This document shows, in pieces, positions 1,194 to 22,872 of a stretch of DNA of 32,000 nucleotides. Location of the stretch: NCBI GenBank assembly GCA_030649345.1, contig JAUSKK010000036.1:2024-34023 (forward strand), in the 5' to 3' direction. Position 1 is the first letter of the stretch. Every line of letters starts with the position of its first letter. The stretch comes from Candidatus Iainarchaeum sp. GTDB lineage: Archaea; Iainarchaeota; Iainarchaeia; Iainarchaeales; 0-14-0-20-34-12. A program made the translations under genes and the position numbers. A model generated the notes under the pieces. The model made no database searches, had not been told where the DNA came from, and saw nothing but the letters and a program-made list of their open reading frames with translations.

Positions 1194-1314
1194 GCAGGAG
1201 TACCCAAGCGGCCAACGGGGCAGGACTTAAGTTCAAAGAATATTTACAAAGGAGAGAAGCGATAAGTGATCCTGTGGCTTAGTGCATTCGAAGGTTCGAA
1301 TCCTTCCTCCTGCA
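1194..1314 (+). tRNA. tRNA-Leu (anticodon UAA) with a 37-nt intron at the canonical 37/38 position (intron 1232-1268)
   Basis: Acceptor stem GCAGGAG/CTCCTGC with discriminator A. D arm CCC..GG..GGG. Anticodon stem CAGGA/TCCTG with loop CT-TAA-G[intron]A. Long class II variable arm. T arm GAAGG-TTCGAAT-CCTTC. No encoded CCA. Confidence 0.8.
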
Positions 1315-8249: not shown

Positions 8250-8403
8250 TAGAAATTTAAGAGGCAAGGCACTATTTTTAAAGCTTTTGAAAGGCTAGTA
8301 TTGTATACTGGTTTTATAGTCTACTTGCCGAAGGCAATTCGGAGGTATCGGAACCGAAGGTTCTGATTTAGACAGTAACCGATGATAATTTGGAGGTTAG
8401 AAT
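8250..8403 (+). promoter_or_regulatory. Long structured leader/spacer upstream of rpl7ae (function unknown)
   Basis: 154 nt, noticeably more GC-rich than other spacers. Hairpins CCGAA-GGCAA-TTCGG (8328-8342) and GGAACC-GAA-GGTTCT (8350-8364). Alternative pairing ATCGG 8347-8351 with CCGAT 8379-8383. CTGA at 8363-8366 and GATGATA at 8381-8387. SD GGAGGT at 8392-8397. Confidence 0.3.
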
Positions 8404-9006: not shown

Positions 9007-9273
9007 ATGAATAATTGTTCATTTTGTGGAACTAACATTCAACAAGGTACTGGAATTATTTTTGTAAAAAGAACCGGAAAACGTTTTGATTTCTGTTCAC
9101 GAAAATGTGAAAAAAATTTAATGAAATTAAATCGAAATCCAAGAAATTTCAAATGGACCCAAGAATACTGGAAAGAAAAAGGATTCCAGCAAGAAAAAGC
9201 AGGAAAAACTGAAACAGCTAAAAAAGAAGAAACTACAGAAAAGAAAGCTGTGAAACGAAAAAGAAAAAAGTAA
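9007..9273 (+). CDS. rpl24e: 50S ribosomal protein eL24 (L24e)
   Basis: 88 aa. CSFCGTNIQQGTGIIFVKRTGKRFDFCSRKCEKN is the L24e zinc-ribbon signature, followed by a lysine-rich tail. Confidence 0.93.
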   Translation: MNNCSFCGTNIQQGTGIIFVKRTGKRFDFCSRKCEKNLMKLNRNPRNFKWTQEYWKEKGFQQEKAGKTETAKKEETTEKKAVKRKRKK

Positions 9274-9274
9274 A
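9251..9274 (+). repeat. Direct repeat copy 1: last 6 codons plus TAA of rpl24e
   Basis: TGAAACGAAAAAGAAAAAAGTAAA matches 9375-9398 at 22/24. Patchy similarity (AATT..GTGG..CTG..CAAT) continues about 25 nt further in both copies. Confidence 0.8.
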
Positions 9275-9281
9275 CAATTCT

Positions 9282-9376
9282 GTGGTGCTGCAAGCACAAT
9301 AAAACAAAATGTTTTATGTGCATCAAAATCAGCAGATTTTGATTGCACCACGTTCGACCAACCGGAACCCCGGTTG
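9282..9376 (+). repeat. GC-rich structured intercistronic element, copy I1 (two-stem module)
   Basis: Stem 1 is GTGGTGC 9282-9288 / GCACCAC 9345-9351. It encloses two hairpins, 9294-9321 (12 bp with 1 bulge) and ATCAAAAT/ATTTTGAT 9322-9343. Linker is G-TTCGA. Stem 2 is CAACCGG-AACC-CCGGTTG at 9359-9376. Confidence 0.7.
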
Positions 9377-9398
9377 AAACGAAAGCGAAAAAAGTAAA
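9375..9398 (+). repeat. Direct repeat copy 2 of the rpl24e 3' end
   Basis: TGAAACGAAAGCGAAAAAAGTAAA. The two differences from copy 1 (AAA>AAG, AGA>CGA) are synonymous in the rpl24e frame, so it still reads KRKRKK-stop. Confidence 0.8.
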
Positions 9399-9406
9399 AT
9401 AATTTA

Positions 9407-9455
9407 GTGGCACTGGCGCAGCAATGCAACAGTGTCACATACTATCAATCCGGTG
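9407..9455 (+). repeat. Degenerate copy (I5) of the two-stem element
   Basis: Stem GTGGCACTG 9407-9415 / CAGTGTCAC 9430-9438 (9 bp including one G-U). It is followed by A-TACTA-TCAATCCGG, which resembles the core GCAsCAC-G-TGCTA-CCAACCsG at 13/20 against copy I4. Confidence 0.45.
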
Positions 9456-9925
9456 ATATTTTGGAACGAACGTTAATTATTGTAAAACCAGATGCAGTTC
9501 AACGAGGCTTGGTCGGAGAAATTGTAAAAAGATTTGAAGACAAAGGCTTGAAAATTGTAGCCATGAAATTAGAAGTATTGGCTGAAGAAAAACTCAAAGA
9601 ACATTATGCGCATCATTCCACAAAACCATTTTTTCCTGAATTGGTCAACTTTATGAAAAGTACACCTAGTGTATTAATGGTCTTGGAAGGCACAGAATGT
9701 GTTCGAGTGATTCGACAAATGTTGGGTGCCACCAATGGAAGAGATGCAACTTCTGGAACTTTACGCGGAGATTATTCCATTAGCAATCAAAATAATTTAG
9801 TTCATGCCAGTGAAAGTTTGGAAGCAGCAGAAAAAGAAATTGCTCGCTTTTTCAAAAAAGAAGAAGTCATGAATTACACCAAAACTTTAACTGAATGGTT
9901 TTATGCCAGTAAAGAAAAAAATTAA
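9407..9925 (+). CDS. ndk: Nucleoside diphosphate kinase
   Basis: ERTLIIVKPDAVQRGLVGEI..RFE.KGLKIVAMK...NLVHASES is the NDK signature with the active-site His. The conserved core begins at TTG 9461 (MERTLIIVKPD). GTG 9407 is the first base of a hairpin arm, so the first 18 codons are doubtful. Confidence 0.88.
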   Translation: MALAQQCNSVTYYQSGDILERTLIIVKPDAVQRGLVGEIVKRFEDKGLKIVAMKLEVLAEEKLKEHYAHHSTKPFFPELVNFMKSTPSVLMVLEGTECVRVIRQMLGATNGRDATSGTLRGDYSISNQNNLVHASESLEAAEKEIARFFKKEEVMNYTKTLTEWFYASKEKN

Positions 9926-10474: not shown

Positions 10475-12229
10475 GTGAAAATTATGATTCGACAACCGAT
10501 TATTGTAGTCATGGGCCATATTGACCATGGAAAAACCAAATTATTGGACAGAATTCGCGGAACCACTATAGCTGAAAGAGAAGCTGGAGCGATTACGCAA
10601 CATATTGGTGCTACTGAATTACCTGAAAATAAAATTCAAGCTATTTCTGGAAACTTATTAAAGCAATTTGGATTTCAATTAGAAATTCCAGGCTTATTGT
10701 TTATTGATACGCCTGGGCATGATGCATTCACGAATTTAAGAAGACGCGGTGGAAGCATTGCCGATTTATCTATTTTAGTTGTAGACTGCATGCAAGGAAT
10801 TCAACCGCAAACTTTGGAAGCCATTCAAATTTTGAAAACATTCAAAGTACCGTTTGTGGTAGCGTTTAATAAAATTGACAAATTACAAAACTGGCAAAGC
10901 AAGACAGGTTCGTTTTTAGAAAATGAAAAAATTCAAACTACCCATGCCCAAGAATTATTGGATAAAAAAATCTATGAATTGGTTGGAAGATTGTTTGAAT
11001 TAGGATTTGAAGCAGAACGCTTTGATCGAATTCAAGATTTCCGAAAACAAATAGCTATTGTTCCTTTGTCGGCTGTGGTGGGAGAAGGAATTCCTGAATT
11101 GTTAATGATGCTGTCTGGTTTAAGTCAAAAGTTTTTGAAAAACAAATTGGAAATCGGAGAACAAGAAAAATGCAAAGGCACTGTCTTGGAAGTCAAAGAA
11201 GACAAAGGCCTAGGAACAACATTGGATGTAATTTTATACGAAGGATCTTTACGCGTAGGAGATATCATTGCTGTTGGAACCAAACAAGGAGTCACTGAAA
11301 CCAAAATTCGTACTTTACTCAAACCCAAACCATTATCGGAAATACGGGATGAAAAAAATGTATTCAAATCAGTAGAATCTGTAAGCGCGGCTTGCGGAGT
11401 AAAAATTTCCGCTCCAAACTTAGAAAATGTTTTAGCGGGTTCTCCAGTATTGGATGCCAGTGTGGAATCACGGCAACAAATATTGGATGAAATTAAATCC
11501 ATTAAAATTTCAACCGAAGATATTGGCTTAGTCATCAAAGCAGATACTTTAGGATCCTTGGAAGCATTGATTGGATTAATGAAAAACAATCAAATTCCAG
11601 TACGATCCGCAGATGTAGGAATGGTTACCAAAAAAGATGTCATGGAAGCTTTGGCTTCAAAAGAAAAAGATGTTTACCATGGCTGTATTGTTGCATTCAA
11701 TGTAGAAATTGATAAAACTGCAGAAGACGAAGCCAAAAAAAGAGAGATTCAATTATTTTCAGGAAAAGTAGTGTACACCATTATTGATGAATATTCAAAT
11801 TGGGTAAAAACTCAAAAAGATCAAATGAAAAAAAACAAGTCTACTTTCTTGATAAGTCCAGCAAAAATTGAAGTATTGCGAGGCTTTGTTTTTAGAAGAT
11901 CCGATCCAGCCGTGGTTGGCGTAAAAGTATTGATTGGAAAAATTAAATCCAAAACAACATTGATTAATGAAAATACAATGGTACGATTGCAGGGATTGCA
12001 GGAAGAAAAAAAGGCTGTTGAATCTGCAGAAAAAGGAAAAGAACTGGCAGCATCCTTAGAGAATGCAGTCATTGGCCGAAACTTGTTTGAAGGAGATATA
12101 TTGTATACGTATATTCCAGAAAGCCAATTTGAAGAAATTCCAAAGTATTTGGAGCTAAATTCTGAAGAATTGGCCTTACTGGAGGAAATAAAAAATGTTC
12201 AAATCAAACATAAAGAGAACGGAGGATAA
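10475..12229 (+). CDS. infB: Translation initiation factor aIF5B (IF-2 homologue)
   Basis: 584 aa. PIIVVMGHIDHGKTKLLDRIRGT (G1), DTPGH (G3) and NKID (G4), with four-domain length. Start is GTG 10475 or ATG 10484. Confidence 0.93.
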   Translation: MKIMIRQPIIVVMGHIDHGKTKLLDRIRGTTIAEREAGAITQHIGATELPENKIQAISGNLLKQFGFQLEIPGLLFIDTPGHDAFTNLRRRGGSIADLSILVVDCMQGIQPQTLEAIQILKTFKVPFVVAFNKIDKLQNWQSKTGSFLENEKIQTTHAQELLDKKIYELVGRLFELGFEAERFDRIQDFRKQIAIVPLSAVVGEGIPELLMMLSGLSQKFLKNKLEIGEQEKCKGTVLEVKEDKGLGTTLDVILYEGSLRVGDIIAVGTKQGVTETKIRTLLKPKPLSEIRDEKNVFKSVESVSAACGVKISAPNLENVLAGSPVLDASVESRQQILDEIKSIKISTEDIGLVIKADTLGSLEALIGLMKNNQIPVRSADVGMVTKKDVMEALASKEKDVYHGCIVAFNVEIDKTAEDEAKKREIQLFSGKVVYTIIDEYSNWVKTQKDQMKKNKSTFLISPAKIEVLRGFVFRRSDPAVVGVKVLIGKIKSKTTLINENTMVRLQGLQEEKKAVESAEKGKELAASLENAVIGRNLFEGDILYTYIPESQFEEIPKYLELNSEELALLEEIKNVQIKHKENGG

Positions 12230-12233
12230 ATAA

Positions 12234-12293
12234 ATGGTTCCAAAATTCGAAAGAATTTTGAAACTTTAAAAAACACGGAGGTTTTTTAATGGC
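12234..12293 (+). promoter_or_regulatory. 60-nt upstream cassette, copy A (hairpin + AAACTTTAAAAAA + GGAGG + T6 + ATGGC), ending in the rps6e start
   Basis: 50/60 identical to 22813-22872. The 8-bp stem CAAAATTC/GAATTTTG (12241-12260) is intact in both copies while all 4 loop bases differ. Confidence 0.7.
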
Positions 12294-12790: not shown

Positions 12791-14014
12791 ATGGCTGGAA
12801 AAAAAGTAAAAACAGACAGCAGTGCACAATGCGTGCAAGCTGAAGTGAATATTGGTTTAGCCGGCCATGTAGATGCAGGAAAAACAACTTTAACTCAAGC
12901 ATTGAGTGGAAAATGGACAGACACGCATAGTGAAGAATTAAAGCGCGGAATTTCAATACGATTGGGATATGCGGATATTGGAATTTATAAATGCAGTAAA
13001 TGCAAAGAATTTAATTATTCGAATACCAGTGAATGCCCACAGTGTAAATCTCCAGGTATTTTAGACCGCAAAGTTAGTTTTGTGGATGCGCCAGGGCATG
13101 AAACATTAATGACTACTATGTTAAGTGGAGCTGCACTTATGCAAGGCGCTTTGTTGGTAATTGCCGCCAATGAAACTTGCCCGCAAGCACAAACCATTGA
13201 ACACTTGAATGCATTAATTATCAGCGGCATCGAGCAAGTCATTGTAGTGCAAAGCAAAGTAGATTTGGTCACCGAAGAACGAGCATTGGAAAGTCATAAA
13301 GAAATTAAAGAATTTTTGAAAGACACCCAATACAAAAACGCGCCCATTGTACCCATTGCAGCACATTTCAAAATCAATATTGATATATTATTGGAAGAAA
13401 TTCAAAAAAGTATTTCTTCGCCGAAATTTGATTCTACAAAACCATTGAAAATGTTTTGTGCACGATCTTTTGATATTAATAAACCAGGAACGCTTCCTTC
13501 AGAATTACATGGAAGTGTTTTAGGCGGAACCATTATTCAAGGAACCATCAAAAAAGGAGACACCATTGAATTAACTCCTTGGCTGGATGGAAAACAAATT
13601 CAAACCAAAGTTATTGAAATTCGAACCAGCGATGGAGTCTTAGAAGAAGCCAAGCCAGGCGGTTTAATTGCAATAGAAACTTTATTGGATCCAAGTTTAG
13701 CACAAAACGATCAGCTTAAAGGCCAAAACATTGGAGCTGTAGGAATATTCTCTGAACCTACCACAGTCTTGAAAATAGAAATGCATTTTTTGGATCGAGT
13801 TGTTGTCAGCAGTGCTAAACGAGTAGTGCAAGGAGATGACTTGGTTTTAACAGTTGGAACTGCAACTTTGTTGGGAATTGTTTCCAGCGTAAAAGGAAAT
13901 ACTGTAGTTGTTGCTTTGAAGAAACCAGCCGTAGCTGAAAAAGAACAAAAACTTGCAGTCAGCAAACGAGACCAAATGAAATGGAGATTAATTGCTTACG
14001 CAATCAATAAATAA
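12791..14014 (+). CDS. eif2g: Translation initiation factor aIF2 gamma subunit
   Basis: 407 aa. NIGLAGHVDAGKTTLTQALSGKWTDTHSEELKRGISIRLGYA, the zinc knuckle CSKC..CPQC, DAPGH and SKVD. Confidence 0.95.
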   Translation: MAGKKVKTDSSAQCVQAEVNIGLAGHVDAGKTTLTQALSGKWTDTHSEELKRGISIRLGYADIGIYKCSKCKEFNYSNTSECPQCKSPGILDRKVSFVDAPGHETLMTTMLSGAALMQGALLVIAANETCPQAQTIEHLNALIISGIEQVIVVQSKVDLVTEERALESHKEIKEFLKDTQYKNAPIVPIAAHFKINIDILLEEIQKSISSPKFDSTKPLKMFCARSFDINKPGTLPSELHGSVLGGTIIQGTIKKGDTIELTPWLDGKQIQTKVIEIRTSDGVLEEAKPGGLIAIETLLDPSLAQNDQLKGQNIGAVGIFSEPTTVLKIEMHFLDRVVVSSAKRVVQGDDLVLTVGTATLLGIVSSVKGNTVVVALKKPAVAEKEQKLAVSKRDQMKWRLIAYAINK

Positions 14015-14015
14015 T
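13983..14015 (+). repeat. Direct repeat copy 1: last 9 codons plus TAA of aIF2-gamma
   Basis: GGAGATTAATTGCTTACGCAATCAATAAATAAT is identical (33/33) to 14075-14107. Confidence 0.95.
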
Positions 14016-14074
14016 CAAAACTATCGAGGCAAAGCCGAAGATAGTTTAAAGTACCGCCGGCTTTCCGGCGAAAC
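14016..14074 (+). repeat. GC-rich two-hairpin insert, copy I2
   Basis: 29/59 G+C. Hairpin 1 is AAACTATC 14018-14025 / GATAGTTT 14040-14047, with GGC-AAA-GCC in the loop. Linker is AAAGTA. Hairpin 2 is CGCCGG-CTTT-CCGGCG at 14055-14070. Tail is AAAC. The right half aligns with I1 (ACC..CCGG..CCGG..GAAAC). Confidence 0.75.
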
Positions 14075-14107
14075 GGAGATTAATTGCTTACGCAATCAAT
14101 AAATAAT
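14075..14107 (+). repeat. Direct repeat copy 2 of the aIF2-gamma 3' end
   Basis: 33/33 identity to 13983-14015. It ends exactly at ATG 14108. Confidence 0.95.
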
Positions 14108-14587
14108 ATGCAATCAATCAATAAAAAAATGAATATTAAAAATGAAAAAAAATTAAACAGTGCTGCTGAAGTGCAACGAAAGCAGCACGTGCTACCAACC
14201 CGCACGCGGGTTGCAATTGACACAAATATGTTGTTAAGTGTCAGTCAATTAAAATTGGATATTTTTCAAGAAGTAGTCAACGAATTTGGAGAACAAAATT
14301 CTGAAATTGCAATCCCAGATAGGGTATTAAATGAATTAAAAAAATTGGCAGAAATTGAAAAAAACAAAGATGCCATTTTAGCTCAAGCCTGGTTAAACCA
14401 GAAAAAATTTAAAGTTTTGAAAGCCCAAAAGGCCGATAATGCAGATAAAGCCCTTTTAGAGCTTGCAAAACAAGGGTTTATCATAGCTACCAATGATAAA
14501 GTCTTACGAAAAAGTATAAAAAACGTTAATGGCAAGAGTATTTATATTAGAAAACGAAAAGTACTAGACTTTTCAGAAACATTCTAA
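14108..14587 (+). CDS. PIN-domain protein (the Fcf1/Utp23-like PIN gene conserved between aIF2-gamma and rpoE in archaea)
   Basis: The core VAIDTNMLL...IPDRVLNEL...DKALLELAKQGFIIATNDKVLRK carries PIN acidic residues. Gene order aIF2gamma-PIN-Rpo7-Spt4-S24e-S27ae is conserved. The start is uncertain: TTG 14084 lies inside the duplicated repeat, and other candidates are ATG 14108, ATG 14129 and GTG 14189. Confidence 0.72.
   Translation: MQSINKKMNIKNEKKLNSAAEVQRKQHVLPTRTRVAIDTNMLLSVSQLKLDIFQEVVNEFGEQNSEIAIPDRVLNELKKLAEIEKNKDAILAQAWLNQKKFKVLKAQKADNADKALLELAKQGFIIATNDKVLRKSIKNVNGKSIYIRKRKVLDFSETF
14160..14213 (+). repeat. Two-stem element, copy I4, inside the 5' extension of the PIN ORF
   Basis: Stem 1 is GTGCTGC 14160-14166 / GCAGCAC 14182-14188. 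Linker is G-TGCTA. Stem 2 is CAACCCG-CACG-CGGGTTG at 14196-14213. The core 14182-14201 is 16/20 identical to 9345-9364 and 15/20 to 22517-22536. Confidence 0.7.
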
Positions 14588-15235: not shown

Positions 15236-15268
15236 GGTGAATTTTAAATGAATTTAAAATTTAAAAAA

Positions 15269-15306
15269 AATTTTAAAACTTTAAAAAACCGGGGGTTTTT
15301 TAAATG
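15269..15306 (+). promoter_or_regulatory. Partial third copy (C) of the upstream cassette, ending in the spt4 start
   Basis: AATTTTAAAACTTTAAAAAACCGGGGGTTTTTTAAATG aligns with the 3' two-thirds of cassette A (20/21 over AATTTTGAAACTTTAAAAAAC). It is preceded by an AT-only palindrome, AATTTTAAAT/ATTTAAAATT, at 15240-15261. Confidence 0.55.
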
Positions 15307-20613: not shown

Positions 20614-22500
20614 ATGAGTAAAGTAATTGGAATCGATTTAGGAACCAGTAATTCAGCAGCTGCAGTCTTGGAAGCAGGAAAACCAAAAATTATTCCAAGC
20701 GCAGAAGGAACTTCTTTATACGGAAAAGCATTTCCAAGTGTTGTGGCATTCACAAAAGATGACCAAGTTTTGGTGGGTGAACCGGCACGCAGACAAGCTG
20801 TCAGTAATCCAGATAAAACAATTATGGCAGCCAAGCGAAAAATGGGAACTACTTTCAAATACAAGATTGGCTCGAAAGAATTTACGCCTCAACAAATTAG
20901 TGCATTTATTTTACAGAAAATTAAAAAAGACGCAGAAGAATTTTTAGGCGAAAAAGTAGAAAAAGCTGTAATCACTGTGCCAGCTTATTTTGATGACAAT
21001 CAAAGACAAGCAACCAAAGATGCAGGAGAAATTGCAGGCTTGGAAGTTATTCGAATTATTAATGAACCCACAGCTGCTGCTTTAGCCTATGGCTTAGATA
21101 AAAGCAATCAAGACATGAAAATTTTAGTATTCGATTTCGGCGGCGGAACATTGGATGTAACTGTAATGGAATTAGGCCATGGAGTCTTTGAAGTCAAATC
21201 AACCAGCGGAGACACTCAATTGGGCGGCACAGACATGGATAAAATTTTAGTGGATTATTTGGTGGCAGAATTCAAAAAAGAACAAGCTGTTGATTTAAGC
21301 AAAGACAGTGTAGCTATGCAGAGATTACGAGAAGCTGCAGAAAAAGCCAAAATTGAATTAAGTACAGTTTTGGATACACAAATTAATTTACCGTACATTA
21401 CAGCTACTCCGGAAGGCCCGAAACATTTGGCCCTGAGTTTAACAAGATCAAAATTAGAACAATTGGTCGAGCCCTTAATTCATAGATGCGAAAAACCAGT
21501 CCAGCAAGCTTTGGCGGATGCCAAAGTATCCCCGGGAGATGTAGCTAAAATTATTTTAGTCGGCGGACCAACCCGAATGCCTGCAGTACAAAAGTTTGTG
21601 GAAAAAATTACAGGAGCCAAACCAGAACGAGGCATTGACCCAATGGAATGTGTAGCTATGGGTGCAGCCATTCAAGCCGGAGTTTTAGCTGGAGAAGTTA
21701 AAGATGTTTTATTATTGGACGTAACACCCCTAAGTTTAGGAATTGAAACCTTGGGTGGAGTGTTTACTCATTTAATTGAACGCAATACAACCATTCCAAC
21801 CAAAAAAACTCAAATATTTAGCACAGCTGCAGACAACCAAAATGCAGTAGATATTCATATCCTGCAAGGAGAAAGACCTATGGCAGTAGACAACAAAAGT
21901 TTGGGCAGATTTATTTTAGATGGAATTCCTCCAGCACCTCGCGGTGTTCCACAAGTTGAAGTCATGTACGATATTGATGCCAACGGAATTTTGGATGTTA
22001 AAGCCAAAGATTTAGGCACAGGCAAAGAAAAAAGCATCAAAATTGTTTCTCCGCAAAAATTGGATAAAGAAGAAATTGAGCGAATGAAGCAGGAAGCGGA
22101 AAAGTTTGCAGAAGCGGATCAAAAGAAAAAAGAAGAGATTGAAACTTTGAATATGGCAGACAACACAGTTTATGGGACTGAAAAGGTGTTGAAAGAATTG
22201 AGCGGGAAAATTTCTGCAGAACAAGAAACAGAAATTAAAGAAAAAAATGAAACATTAAGAAAATTAGTAAACGAGCCAACCAAAGATGTTGCAAAAATTA
22301 AAACAGCTTTAGATGACTTGAATGCATTCGTGCAAAAAATCAGTACAGAAATGTATCAAAAAGCCGGAGAACAATACCAGCAACAAAATCAAGGAGAACA
22401 AGGAAATCCCGGACAAGAAGAAGAACACAAGCACAAAAAGAAAAACAAAGACGGAAAAGTGGTTGACGCGGAGTTTAAGGAAGACGAAAGCAAACAATAG
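20614..22500 (+). CDS. dnaK: Chaperone DnaK (Hsp70), bacterial type
   Basis: 628 aa. [56 protein letters not shown] and [15 protein letters not shown] lies 7 nt upstream. Confidence 0.97.
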
Positions 22501-22502
22501 TG
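22461..22502 (+). repeat. Direct repeat copy 1: last 12 codons plus TAG of dnaK
   Basis: GGTTGACGCGGAGTTTAAGGAAGACGAAAGCAAACAATAGTG matches 22595-22636 at 41/42. Confidence 0.95.
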
Positions 22503-22594
22503 CTGAACGCAGTGAAGCACTACGACCTACCAACCGCGCGATTAAAACGCAGCGTTTTAATGCGCATTTAAACAAAAGTTTAAATCGCGTCCGC
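22503..22594 (+). repeat. GC-rich structured insert, copy I3 of the two-stem element
   Basis: Short stem AGTG-AAG-CACT at 22511-22521. Core is GCACTACG-ACCTA-CCAACCG at 22517-22536. The outer stem CAACCGCG 22531-22538 / CGCGGTTG 22592-22599 reaches into repeat copy 2. It encloses the hairpins ATTAAAAC/GTTTTAAT (22541-22561) and ATTTAAAC-AAAA-GTTTAAAT (22566-22585). Confidence 0.75.
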
Positions 22595-22636
22595 GGTTGA
22601 CGCGGAGTTTAAGGAAGACGAGAGCAAACAATAGTG
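22595..22636 (+). repeat. Direct repeat copy 2 of the dnaK 3' end
   Basis: The single difference (A 22488 versus G 22622) is GAA>GAG, synonymous in the dnaK frame. Confidence 0.95.
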
Positions 22637-22665
22637 GAAAAGATAGAACAAATGGAGTTGGTCAT

Positions 22666-22794
22666 ATGAATCCTGAAGTGAAAGCAAAAAAAGTTGAACC
22701 TGTTTTGAAGAATCAACCGAAAGCAGAAGATGTAGTTATTCTTGGCCAAGCAAAAAAATCAAGAGATTACTTGAATAACTTTATGGCAGCATAA
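22666..22794 (+). CDS. Small hypothetical ORF (42 aa) between dnaK and dnaJ
   Basis: MNPEVKAKKVEPVLKNQPKAEDVVILGQAKKSRDYLNNFMAA, with GGAG about 8 nt upstream. The longer 22597 start lies inside the duplicated dnaK tail and is unlikely. No recognisable family, so it may be non-coding. Confidence 0.25.
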   Translation: MNPEVKAKKVEPVLKNQPKAEDVVILGQAKKSRDYLNNFMAA

Positions 22795-22812
22795 TTAATC
22801 AGGTAGAAATCA

Positions 22813-22872
22813 ATGGTTCCAAAATTCTTTTGAATTTTGAAACTTTAAAAAATAAAGGAATTTTTTAATGGC
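22813..22872 (+). promoter_or_regulatory. 60-nt upstream cassette, copy B, ending in the dnaJ start
   Basis: 50/60 identical to 12234-12293. Stem CAAAATTC/GAATTTTG at 22820-22839 with a TTTT loop. Followed by AAACTTTAAAAAA, then T6-AATGGC. Confidence 0.7.

Follow-up and report, generated by a model that had tools for sequence, protein, structure and literature searches.

We analysed the boundary between rpl24e, the gene for ribosomal protein L24e, and ndk in a stretch of contig JAUSKK010000036.1 from Candidatus Iainarchaeum sp. that is 32,000 nucleotides (nt) long; this whole stretch is the window, and coordinates, counts and scans refer to its full length unless noted. The window has 35% G+C and carries housekeeping genes, nearly all on the + strand, including those for ribosomal proteins, RNA polymerase subunits, aIF5B, aIF2-gamma, GrpE-DnaK-DnaJ and tRNA synthetases. 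Since the closest named relatives of its NDK and aIF2-gamma proteins come from Candidatus Iainarchaeum and Diapherotrites metagenome-assembled genomes (59–66% identity), the host is placed among the DPANN archaea. Between rpl24e and ndk lie a second copy of the rpl24e 3' end and two predicted hairpin elements (E_C1 and E_C2), arranged as follows (ORF, open reading frame).

9007–9273, + strand: rpl24e coding sequence, an ORF matching Pfam PF01246 (Ribosomal_L24e, E = 2e-19) and ending KAVKRKRKK-stop, with a C-terminus identical to that of the close relative L165.
9251–9274, + strand: direct repeat copy 1, the functional tail (final rpl24e codons, TAA stop and 1 nt), with AAAAGA at the variant positions, as in L165.
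9276–9451, + strand: inserted block of ~176 nt, lineage-specific and absent from the close relatives L165 and L163 in a three-way alignment.
9282–9376, + strand: element E_C1, a GC-rich double hairpin with stem I (9282–9288/9345–9351), the linker GTTCGAC (9352–9358) and stem II (CAACCGG/CCGGTTG, 9359–9376).
9294–9345, + strand: AT-rich twin-hairpin module nested in the stem I loop of E_C1 (hairpins 9294–9321 and 9322–9343).
9375–9398, + strand: direct repeat copy 2, the second and non-coding rpl24e tail, whose initial TG is common to the 3' arm of stem II; absent in relatives.
9399–9451, + strand: element E_C2, a degenerate second copy between tail 2 and the ndk ribosome-binding site; absent in relatives.
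9452–9925, + strand: ndk with its GGTGAT ribosome-binding site and start TTG 9461 (MERTLIIVKP); the Pfam NDK domain begins at residue 20 of the long ORF.

The two tail copies (TGAAACGAAAAAGAAAAAAGTAAA at 9251–9274 and TGAAACGAAAGCGAAAAAAGTAAA at 9375–9398) are identical at 22/24 positions and both encode KRKRKK-stop. Their two mismatches are adjacent (AA>GC) and read in the rpl24e frame as AAA>AAG and AGA>CGA, both silent. An earlier reading of the letters without database searches (the sequence-only reading) had reported this match and its silent differences, and the sequence bears it out. The same reading cautioned that A-rich, low-complexity sequence weakens the repeat as evidence, and indeed a 24-nt A-rich repeat on a metagenome-assembled contig invites explanation as a chance match or an artefact of assembly. 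Controls and independent contigs effectively refute this explanation, to which we attach next to no probability. First, no match above 20/24 arose in 5000 shuffles of the 300 nt that follow the fixed rpl24e tail, and even 300 nt of the tail's own A-rich composition reached 22/24 in only 2 of 5000 trials. Second, pairs of 24-mers matching at 22/24 or better within 300 nt occur just three times in the window, each spanning the stop codon of a gene (rpl24e, aIF2-gamma and dnaK), and dinucleotide shuffles of the window gave such a pair in 1 of 40. Third, both junctions are reproduced base for base by the independently assembled k = 31 Logan contigs L001 and L164 (run SRR13727527), which are 100% identical to the window over tail 1–element and element–tail 2–ndk. 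Lastly, the two mismatches between the copies speak against a collapsed or duplicated k-mer path. The rpl24e repeat is a true duplication of the gene's 3' end and not an A-rich accident, and the second KRKRKK-stop is probably a dead copy of the last seven codons of rpl24e. L001 ends at 9378 and L164 starts at 9350, a contig break within the stem II region of the rpl24e element that may reflect other near-identical element copies or low coverage. The branching of k-mers is complex at 9348–9380 and may hint at a near-identical donor for E_C1.

L165 and L163 came to light only via a protein index; NDK scans of GTDB representatives and JGI metagenomes returned no relative above 59–66% identity. 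L165, from ERZ28564302, shares 91% nucleotide identity with the window in both rpl24e and ndk, and its rpl24e end (...KAVKRKRKK-TAA) is followed by 11 nt (ATGGTGACTCA) and then the ndk ATG. L163, from SRR14366766 (91% identity in rpl24e, 81% in ndk), has a spacer of 15 nt; a genome in ERZ27297570 is also counted among the closest relatives. Three-way alignment of these loci gives a clean gap, with nothing to match ~9276–9451 between the conserved flanks GTAAA and GGTGA, both relatives running GTAAA(C/T) directly into (TTA)GGTGA. In the more distant relatives L002–L004, L083, L084, L088 and L216, rpl24e and ndk abut or overlap, and the fully syntenic L216 has a GTGA stop/start overlap. Because the relatives lack ~9276–9451, they represent empty sites, and on this sequence comparison we consider the 176-nt block to be demonstrated as a lineage-specific insertion. 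The sequence-only reading had listed relatives without any structured spacer as a finding that would count against it; such relatives exist, and as clean empty sites they support an insertion instead. A more distant relative, L085 (56% NDK identity, 55% GC), has its own 85-nt rpl24e-ndk spacer (~2408–2492) with two GC-rich hairpins, the first of which resembles the tail of the preceding gene (GGCGCGGAAAAG vs GGCGCAAAAG); judged by sequence, a similar event may have taken place there independently.

The insertion also bears on where ndk begins. E_C2 is free of stops and in frame with ndk (9407–9925, + strand), and gene callers differ, reporting a 172-aa product from GTG 9407 (P0122) or a 154-aa product from TTG 9461 (P0001); they disagree because the element is open in this frame. 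Relatives' NDK proteins begin MERTL or MEKTL, and a 154-aa NDK product is on record (P0001). As these N-termini and this product agree with the position of the Pfam NDK domain, the true ndk start is assigned on sequence grounds to TTG 9461 and not GTG 9407.

In the predicted fold, E_C1 pairs GTGGTGC with GCACCAC in stem I and, after the 7-nt linker, closes stem II as CAACCGG-AACC-CCGGTTG, reproducing at the same positions the Y-shaped structure and the CAACCGG/CCGGTTG hairpin described in the sequence-only reading. The minimum free energy is -40.8 kcal/mol for 9275–9376 (z = -6.9 vs shuffled controls) and -66.5 kcal/mol for the whole spacer at 9268–9465 (z = -6.4), with tail 2 left unpaired. 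E_C2 has a 9-bp hairpin (9407–9415/9430–9438, GTGGCACTG/CAGTGTCAC) with one G-U pair, plus the remnant CAATCCGG, and folds at -19.3 kcal/mol (z = -4.5, + strand). With the exception of this degenerate copy, folding is about equal on both strands and thus does not discriminate an RNA from a DNA structure. The first 36 nt of E_C2 are identical to the start of E_C1 at 20 positions, both elements start GTGG and share GCA.CAAT, and the two are more alike than either is to copies at other loci. The patchy similarity past the stop that had been noted earlier is real, since the stop-anchored match of 20/36 has p ~0.002, but weak, as unanchored local alignment of the post-stop segments gave no significant match.

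The AT-rich module nested in E_C1 (9294–9345) matches a segment at 22535–22590, which lies in stem II of an element downstream of dnaK, at 36 of 52 positions (p ~3e-4 vs shuffles). Its presence in stem I at rpl24e and in stem II at dnaK points to independent nesting into two different stems, and this arrangement implies, as far as sequence can, that the AT-rich twin hairpin is a second mobile or insertional module landing in hairpin loops.

The two other repeat pairs in the window mark sister events at aIF2-gamma and dnaK, with the following features.

13978–14107, + strand: aIF2-gamma sister event, a tail repeat (13978–14015/14070–14107, 37/38, with T>C giving W>R in copy 2) around a double-hairpin insert (14016–14069, z = -4.6).
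14018–14070, + strand: the element between the aIF2-gamma tail repeats, divergent in sequence, with stem I and stem II.
14107–14213, + strand: third, partial aIF2-gamma tail (14107–14129, containing the PIN ATG 14108), an A-rich stretch and a minimal 54-nt element (14160–14213).
22461–22636, + strand: dnaK sister event, a tail repeat (22461–22502/22595–22636, 41/42, with the silent change GAA>GAG) flanking an element; z = -5.0.

The duplicated tails thus measure 24 nt with two mismatches at rpl24e (both silent), 38 nt with one at aIF2-gamma (W>R in copy 2) and 42 nt with one at dnaK (silent). All three repeats end 1–2 nt past the stop codon, and a double-hairpin insert occupies the gap between the copies, in agreement with the earlier proposal that the three loci record one class of event. 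Its view that the rpl24e event is the older also holds up, given 2/24 mismatches against 1/38 and 1/42, the nested extra module and the second, degenerate element. The proposal that the repeated unit is 'tail plus element' fares less evenly. At rpl24e it is plausible, with similarity extending ~36 nt past the stop (p ~0.002), although the tail is far better conserved than the element (22/24 vs 20/36, Fisher p = 0.004). At aIF2-gamma and dnaK it does not apply, since there the tail alone is repeated and the element is single. The tails are native to their genes: the relative P0244 has an identical aIF2-gamma C-terminus and the DnaK tail carries the usual VVDAEF motif.

The dnaK element consists of stem I (22498–22522) and stem II (CAACCGCG..CGCGGTTG, 22531–22599), the latter holding the nested module. 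All DnaK homologues found are at most 77% identical, and no close empty site is available for this event. A dnaK tail joined directly to GAAAAGATAG would be the expected empty-site junction, the rpl24e equivalent being GTAAA joined to GGTGAT. A TTG inside the second dnaK tail copy opens a frame in phase with a 42-codon ORF (ATG 22666), and a gene caller reported this frame (22597–22794, + strand; positions 3–200 of L218) on the Logan contig L218; in the relative L217, no gene separates dnaK from dnaJ. L218 begins exactly at 22595, the first base of dnaK tail copy 2, where the window has no shared 31-mer. This points to another allele in the sample, either an empty site or one with GAG in its first copy.

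At aIF2-gamma the history of the boundary can be followed further. In L216 the PIN ATG lies inside the aIF2-gamma tail, so that the two genes overlap by 17 nt. In the window, the third tail copy keeps this ancestral ATG (14108), and tails 1 and 2 read TAC there, silent for aIF2-gamma. The third copy with its PIN ATG and the L216 overlap together indicate that duplication of the segment separated two overlapping genes, a comparison of sequences that shows tail duplication accompanying the separation of packed genes. From ATG 14108 the PIN frame stays open via the A-rich stretch and the 54-nt element (GTGCTGCT..AGCAGCAC, GTGCTA, CCAACCCG..CGGGTTG) to the catalytic VAIDTN motif; by sequence, the PIN protein has either gained 27 element-derived codons or had its start moved. 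The PIN gene (14084–14587, + strand) has its counterpart at 9181–9582 in L216. An aIF2-gamma contig at 84% identity had no retrievable DNA.

A repeat of this kind could also arise if a tail and an element were imported together by recombination from a diverged strain, through a crossover inside rpl24e and an illegitimate microhomology join upstream of the tail already in place. On this view the donor would have supplied tail 1, the functional one, and tail 2 would be the resident tail that it displaced. Import would account for the mostly silent differences between copies (both having been coding before the event), for the microhomology at the junction of element and tail 2 and for tails being more alike than elements, and the break of L218 at the first base of dnaK copy 2 hints at allele heterogeneity. 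The same rare event would nevertheless have to occur three times in 32 kb, an element-bearing donor would still be needed, leaving the origin of the element unexplained, and copy 2 of aIF2-gamma has R where all relatives keep a conserved W. We consider import very unlikely.

Double hairpins of two adjacent stem-loops are found at 9282–9376, 14018–14070, 14160–14213 and 22498–22599, amounting to four to five G+C-rich copies in the 32 kb. Their common architecture is an 8-bp stem with a purine-rich loop, a ~7-nt linker and a GC-rich stem that often reads CCAACC..GGTTG. The window has three occurrences of the pattern CAC-N-CCAACC..GGTTG, all of them on the + strand and 3' of gene ends, and a regular-expression search of ~1.4 Mb of relatives' loci returned only chance matches that form no hairpin. 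Short-loop, GC-rich perfect hairpins are confined in the window to these element loci. Stems vary between copies yet stay complementary (e.g. GTGCTGC/GCAGCAC vs GTGGTGC/GCACCAC), GA..GA(A) flanks are common to the stem I loops of three copies, and all elements are oriented as the genes. Owing to the nested inserts, a MAFFT alignment of the five copies was not sensible. The elements differ in presence between relatives, L165 and L163 being empty at rpl24e-ndk and L216 overlapping its genes at both junctions. On these sequence features the elements behave as a repeat family and not as a locus-specific regulatory RNA.

Searches for a described counterpart returned little. At gathering score, Rfam 15 has no family for the elements. 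In e-value mode it gave only chance-level matches at 9200–9500 (E 0.86 or higher) and none at the aIF2-gamma and dnaK loci, and its only match in the whole window was an unrelated intron-containing tRNA. ARAGORN reported no match, nor did BLASTN of 9240–9470 against plasmids and phages. A scan of IMG/VR for GCAC-N-CCAACCSSS..SSSGGTTG gave 50 unrelated matches, mostly in high-GC contexts and none with the two-hairpin layout, about the number expected by chance for so short a pattern (a hand estimate, with no computed control). Nothing relevant was found in the literature on hairpin, MITE (miniature inverted-repeat transposable element) or palindromic repeats of DPANN archaea, and as far as we could find the element family and its nesting are new for this archaeal group.

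The strength of the folding (z about -6.4 to -6.9) raises the alternative that the spacer is a selected cis-element acting as RNA, for instance an mRNA-stabilising or processing site uncoupling ndk from the ribosomal-protein transcript, or a protein-binding site, with tail 2 kept as part of the element or of the ndk leader. Compensatory differences that preserve stems between copies, the sense orientation of every copy, the GA..GA(A) flanks and the silent differences in tail 2 are all in keeping with such a role. However, the relatives with 91% and 81% ndk identity (rpl24e ~91% in both) lack the element, a spacer of 11–15 nt being enough there; no Rfam match appears even at E up to 5–10; and both strands fold about equally, as DNA palindromes would. 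Moreover, tail 2 is unpaired in the predicted fold, the change in aIF2-gamma copy 2 is non-silent, and the element type follows genes as unrelated as those of a chaperone, an initiation factor and a ribosomal protein. A functional RNA is therefore improbable in our view. We infer no function for the elements, and a role of the hairpins in mRNA stability or processing would be secondary.

Several specific identities were considered and dropped. A kink turn (K-turn) or K-loop does not suit the GA..GAA stem I loops, whose geometry is unfit for a 3-nt bulge followed by tandem GA. A hammerhead-like core, group II intron ends (GUGYG) and T-arm mimicry were likewise set aside. Of the imperfect palindrome of an integron attC site, with R'' RYYYAAC and R' GTTRRRY, only the AAC/GTT core of CCAACC..GGTTG fits; the surroundings are syntenic housekeeping genes and not cassettes, with no integrase. 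Programmed translational bypass (gene 60 or byp-like) is at odds with both copies ending in a stop, with spacings of 124, 92 and 134 that are not multiples of 3 and with an unchanged product.

A more serious alternative is enzymatic transposition, in which the double hairpins would be non-autonomous elements resembling MITEs or palindrome-associated transposable elements (PATEs), mobilised through staggered cuts by a transposase or integrase encoded elsewhere, and the 24–42-nt repeats would be genuine target-site duplications. In favour of this, the elements make up a family whose architecture and ends are defined, occur several times in 32 kb, include a nested second module, have clean empty sites in close relatives and all lie in one orientation. 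Long, variable target duplications are also reported for some elements of the IS4 and IS30 groups of insertion sequences (IS). Against this, the elements lack terminal inverted repeats: the insert ends CAATTCTG../..CCCCGGT, CTGAACGC../..CGTCCGC and CAAAACTA../..TTCCGGC are not inverted copies of each other, which argues against a MITE, as does a repeat of 24, 38 or 42 nt in place of a fixed short target-site duplication. Element ends also overlap the repeats by microhomology, which is unusual for transposases, and the elements at 14160–14213 and 9399–9451 have no recognisable long flanking repeat. Transposase, integrase, reverse transcriptase and Cas1 genes are absent from among the window ORFs with a Pfam match, all of which belong to housekeeping families; five ORFs have no Pfam match. 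We found no related autonomous IS with a transposase and no Y1 transposase (TnpA/RAYT) gene in the window. On balance we hold transposition to be unlikely, if less so than a functional RNA.

Other mobile systems fit no better. An origin from IS200/IS605-derived PATEs, or from the REP/RAYT system (repetitive extragenic palindromes and their associated transposases), is contradicted by the long duplications, and the left flanks TAAA, TAAT and TAGTG are alike only as stop codons. The inserts of 54–100 nt contain no ORF and hence no integrase-encoding insert, which does not accord with a site-specific integrative element bounded by attL and attR. In a diversity-generating retroelement the repeat would be at least ~100 nt and not 24 nt, and differences would fall at adenines of the template copy; here A in the gene copy becomes G or C downstream, the wrong direction, and the window has no reverse transcriptase. 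Cas1-type spacer integration and casposons were considered and dropped. Lastly, had the rpl24e tail (GTGAAACGAA) undergone unequal crossover with the ndk start (TTGGAACGAA), which resembles it, 8/18 changes would be needed in the copied ribosome-binding region as against 2/24 in the tail.

We judge it the likelier course that repetitive hairpin-forming elements were copied in beside stop codons by a microhomology-using, duplication-generating process, with the second tail as its by-product. This copy-in reading is favoured because repeat length varies, junction bases are shared, the termini are not inverted and no mobility gene is nearby. The 3' end of the element shares GGTTG with copy 2 at dnaK, TG at rpl24e and G at aIF2-gamma, and the first GTG of the dnaK element is the last GTG of the repeat. 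In the proposed sequence of events, the nascent strand would leave its template just past the stop codon, switch to and copy a hairpin element and return to the original template 24–42 nt behind the point of departure, creating the direct repeat. Copy 1 would then remain the functional tail and copy 2 would drift, the second tail being tolerated because the first keeps the gene intact. Where genes abut or overlap, the upstream gene would stay intact only if the duplicated segment contained the stop codon; an insertion at a packed gene boundary would thus be tolerated only with the boundary present on both sides, so that every surviving repeat contains a stop.

Two routes could lead to the present rpl24e arrangement. 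A new element copy with its tail duplication may have landed upstream of an older resident element, or tail, spacer and element may have been duplicated locally in tandem and diverged later. That the two local elements resemble each other most, with similarity beginning directly after the stop, favours a local origin; the contrast of 22/24 in the tail with ~20/36 in the element speaks for two steps, or for an element converted by other copies.

Several observations weigh against the copy-in reading or narrow it. First, the disparity between the tail and the local elements (Fisher p = 0.004) is unpredicted by a single tandem duplication and calls for a second step, be it a later separate insertion, conversion from other copies or faster decay of GC-rich hairpins. 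Second, synonymous changes account for three of the four differences across the three repeats (p = 0.017 if mutation is uniform), and this excess could mean that the second copies were once coding; allowing for a constrained first copy, it fades to about p = 0.1 by hand estimate. Third, microhomologies of 1–5 nt are short and could be coincidental, the uniform gene-sense orientation of the elements also fits an RNA-level role, and the near-equal folding of both strands does not decide between DNA and RNA structure. Lastly, the evidence comprises no donor copy, no empty/filled pair from the same population and no genome-wide copy count. As to the second point, the sequence-only reading had described the KRKRKK-stop as kept by two synonymous changes. 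This does not demonstrate selection on copy 2: the two changes lie side by side as one doublet, a functional first copy would in any case let only silent changes through, and the relatives leave the original Arg codon ambiguous (AGA in L165, CGA in L163); the second aIF2-gamma copy, besides, carries W>R.

Among known systems, the repetitive hairpin-forming elements of organelles, namely those of Allomyces mitochondrial DNA, the GC clusters of yeast mitochondrial DNA and the sponge elements, are short (~50–100 nt), G+C-rich, hairpin-forming and dispersed, with no known adaptive function (PMC2800124; PMC4478555). The double-hairpin elements of Allomyces are noted for lacking flanking duplications (PMC2800124). 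By analogy, these organelle elements appear closest to those of the window, which are likewise short, non-coding, G+C-rich within a compact A+T-rich genome and built of two adjacent stem-loops, lie at gene boundaries in several copies, are present or absent between close relatives and nest or merge. They differ in that the host is a DPANN archaeon, that three copies are flanked by 24–42-nt duplicates of upstream gene tails and that there is no sequence similarity. The flanking duplications of yeast GC clusters are very short.

With bacterial and archaeal MITEs the window elements have in common that they are small, non-autonomous, structured inserts in multiple copies with flanking direct repeats and empty sites in relatives; unlike MITEs, they have no terminal inverted repeats, their flanking repeats are long and variable as against a fixed 2–10 bp, and no parent IS was identified. 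REP sequences, the bacterial interspersed mosaic elements (BIMEs) that they form and IS200/IS605-derived PATEs also have hairpins at or near both ends, no inverted termini, a position just 3' of genes and a single orientation. Those elements, however, insert via a Y1 transposase (TnpA or RAYT) without target duplication and beside a conserved tetra- or pentanucleotide, whereas the window shows long duplications, no Y1 gene and no conserved GTAG-type motif. Ogata et al. in 2000 reportedly described Rickettsia palindromic elements of ~100–150 nt that are translated and tolerated in, or at the edge of, housekeeping genes. The element at 14160–14213 is similar in that it occupies the 5' part of the PIN ORF in frame and without stops; unlike the Rickettsia elements, those of the window are tied to gene-tail duplications, and the rpl24e copy is outside coding sequence. 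Fungal mitochondrial genes, such as atp6 of Allomyces, carry mobile inserts with a replacement C-terminus. These, and integrative elements that restore the 3' end of the target gene by att duplication, share with the window the order gene tail, insert, second gene tail, in which the first copy keeps the gene intact, but they are kilobases long and encode an integrase or endonuclease, while the window inserts are non-coding and only 54–100 nt.

DPANN archaea have among the most compact cellular genomes, with neighbouring genes that abut or overlap. The rpl24e-ndk locus offers a view of how non-coding DNA enters such a genome, the boundary itself being duplicated and both neighbours left intact. 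A bolder reading, possible but doubtful, is that the window captures an undescribed and active family of mobile, nested double hairpins from DPANN (Iainarchaeota-like) archaea, which would insert directly after stop codons and into hairpin loops by an integration that duplicates 24–42 nt of target, unlike any described transposase, integrase or Cas1 reaction, prying overlapping genes apart and building intergenic space in a streamlined genome. Should such a family prove active and widespread, archaea would have their own equivalent of the hairpin repeats by which mitochondrial genomes are inflated. The elements would mark variation between strains, supply new 5' and 3' untranslated regions and call for caution in gene calling, and their target duplications, unusual in being long and variable, would suggest a mechanism of insertion that merits characterisation.

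The window also holds features apart from these elements. A tRNA gene with a ~50-nt intron lies at 1194–1314 (+ strand; Rfam RF00005, 42.1 bits in e-value mode) and was missed by ARAGORN and by Rfam in gathering mode. A promoter-like cassette of ~60 nt (AATGGTTCCAAAATTC..TTTTGAAACTTTAAAAAA..GG..TTTTTTAATG) is present in three copies (12228–12291, 15236–15306 and 22800–22870, + strand), each ending at a start codon (of S6e, of an ORF for a Spt4-like zinc-ribbon protein and of dnaJ), with a mean column identity of 80%; by sequence, it is a second putative family of repeated intergenic modules. Finally, the 5' leader of rpl7ae (8330–8400, + strand) contains a C/D-box-like pair (TCTGATTT ... CGATGATAA) that could form a K-turn for autoregulation by L7Ae.

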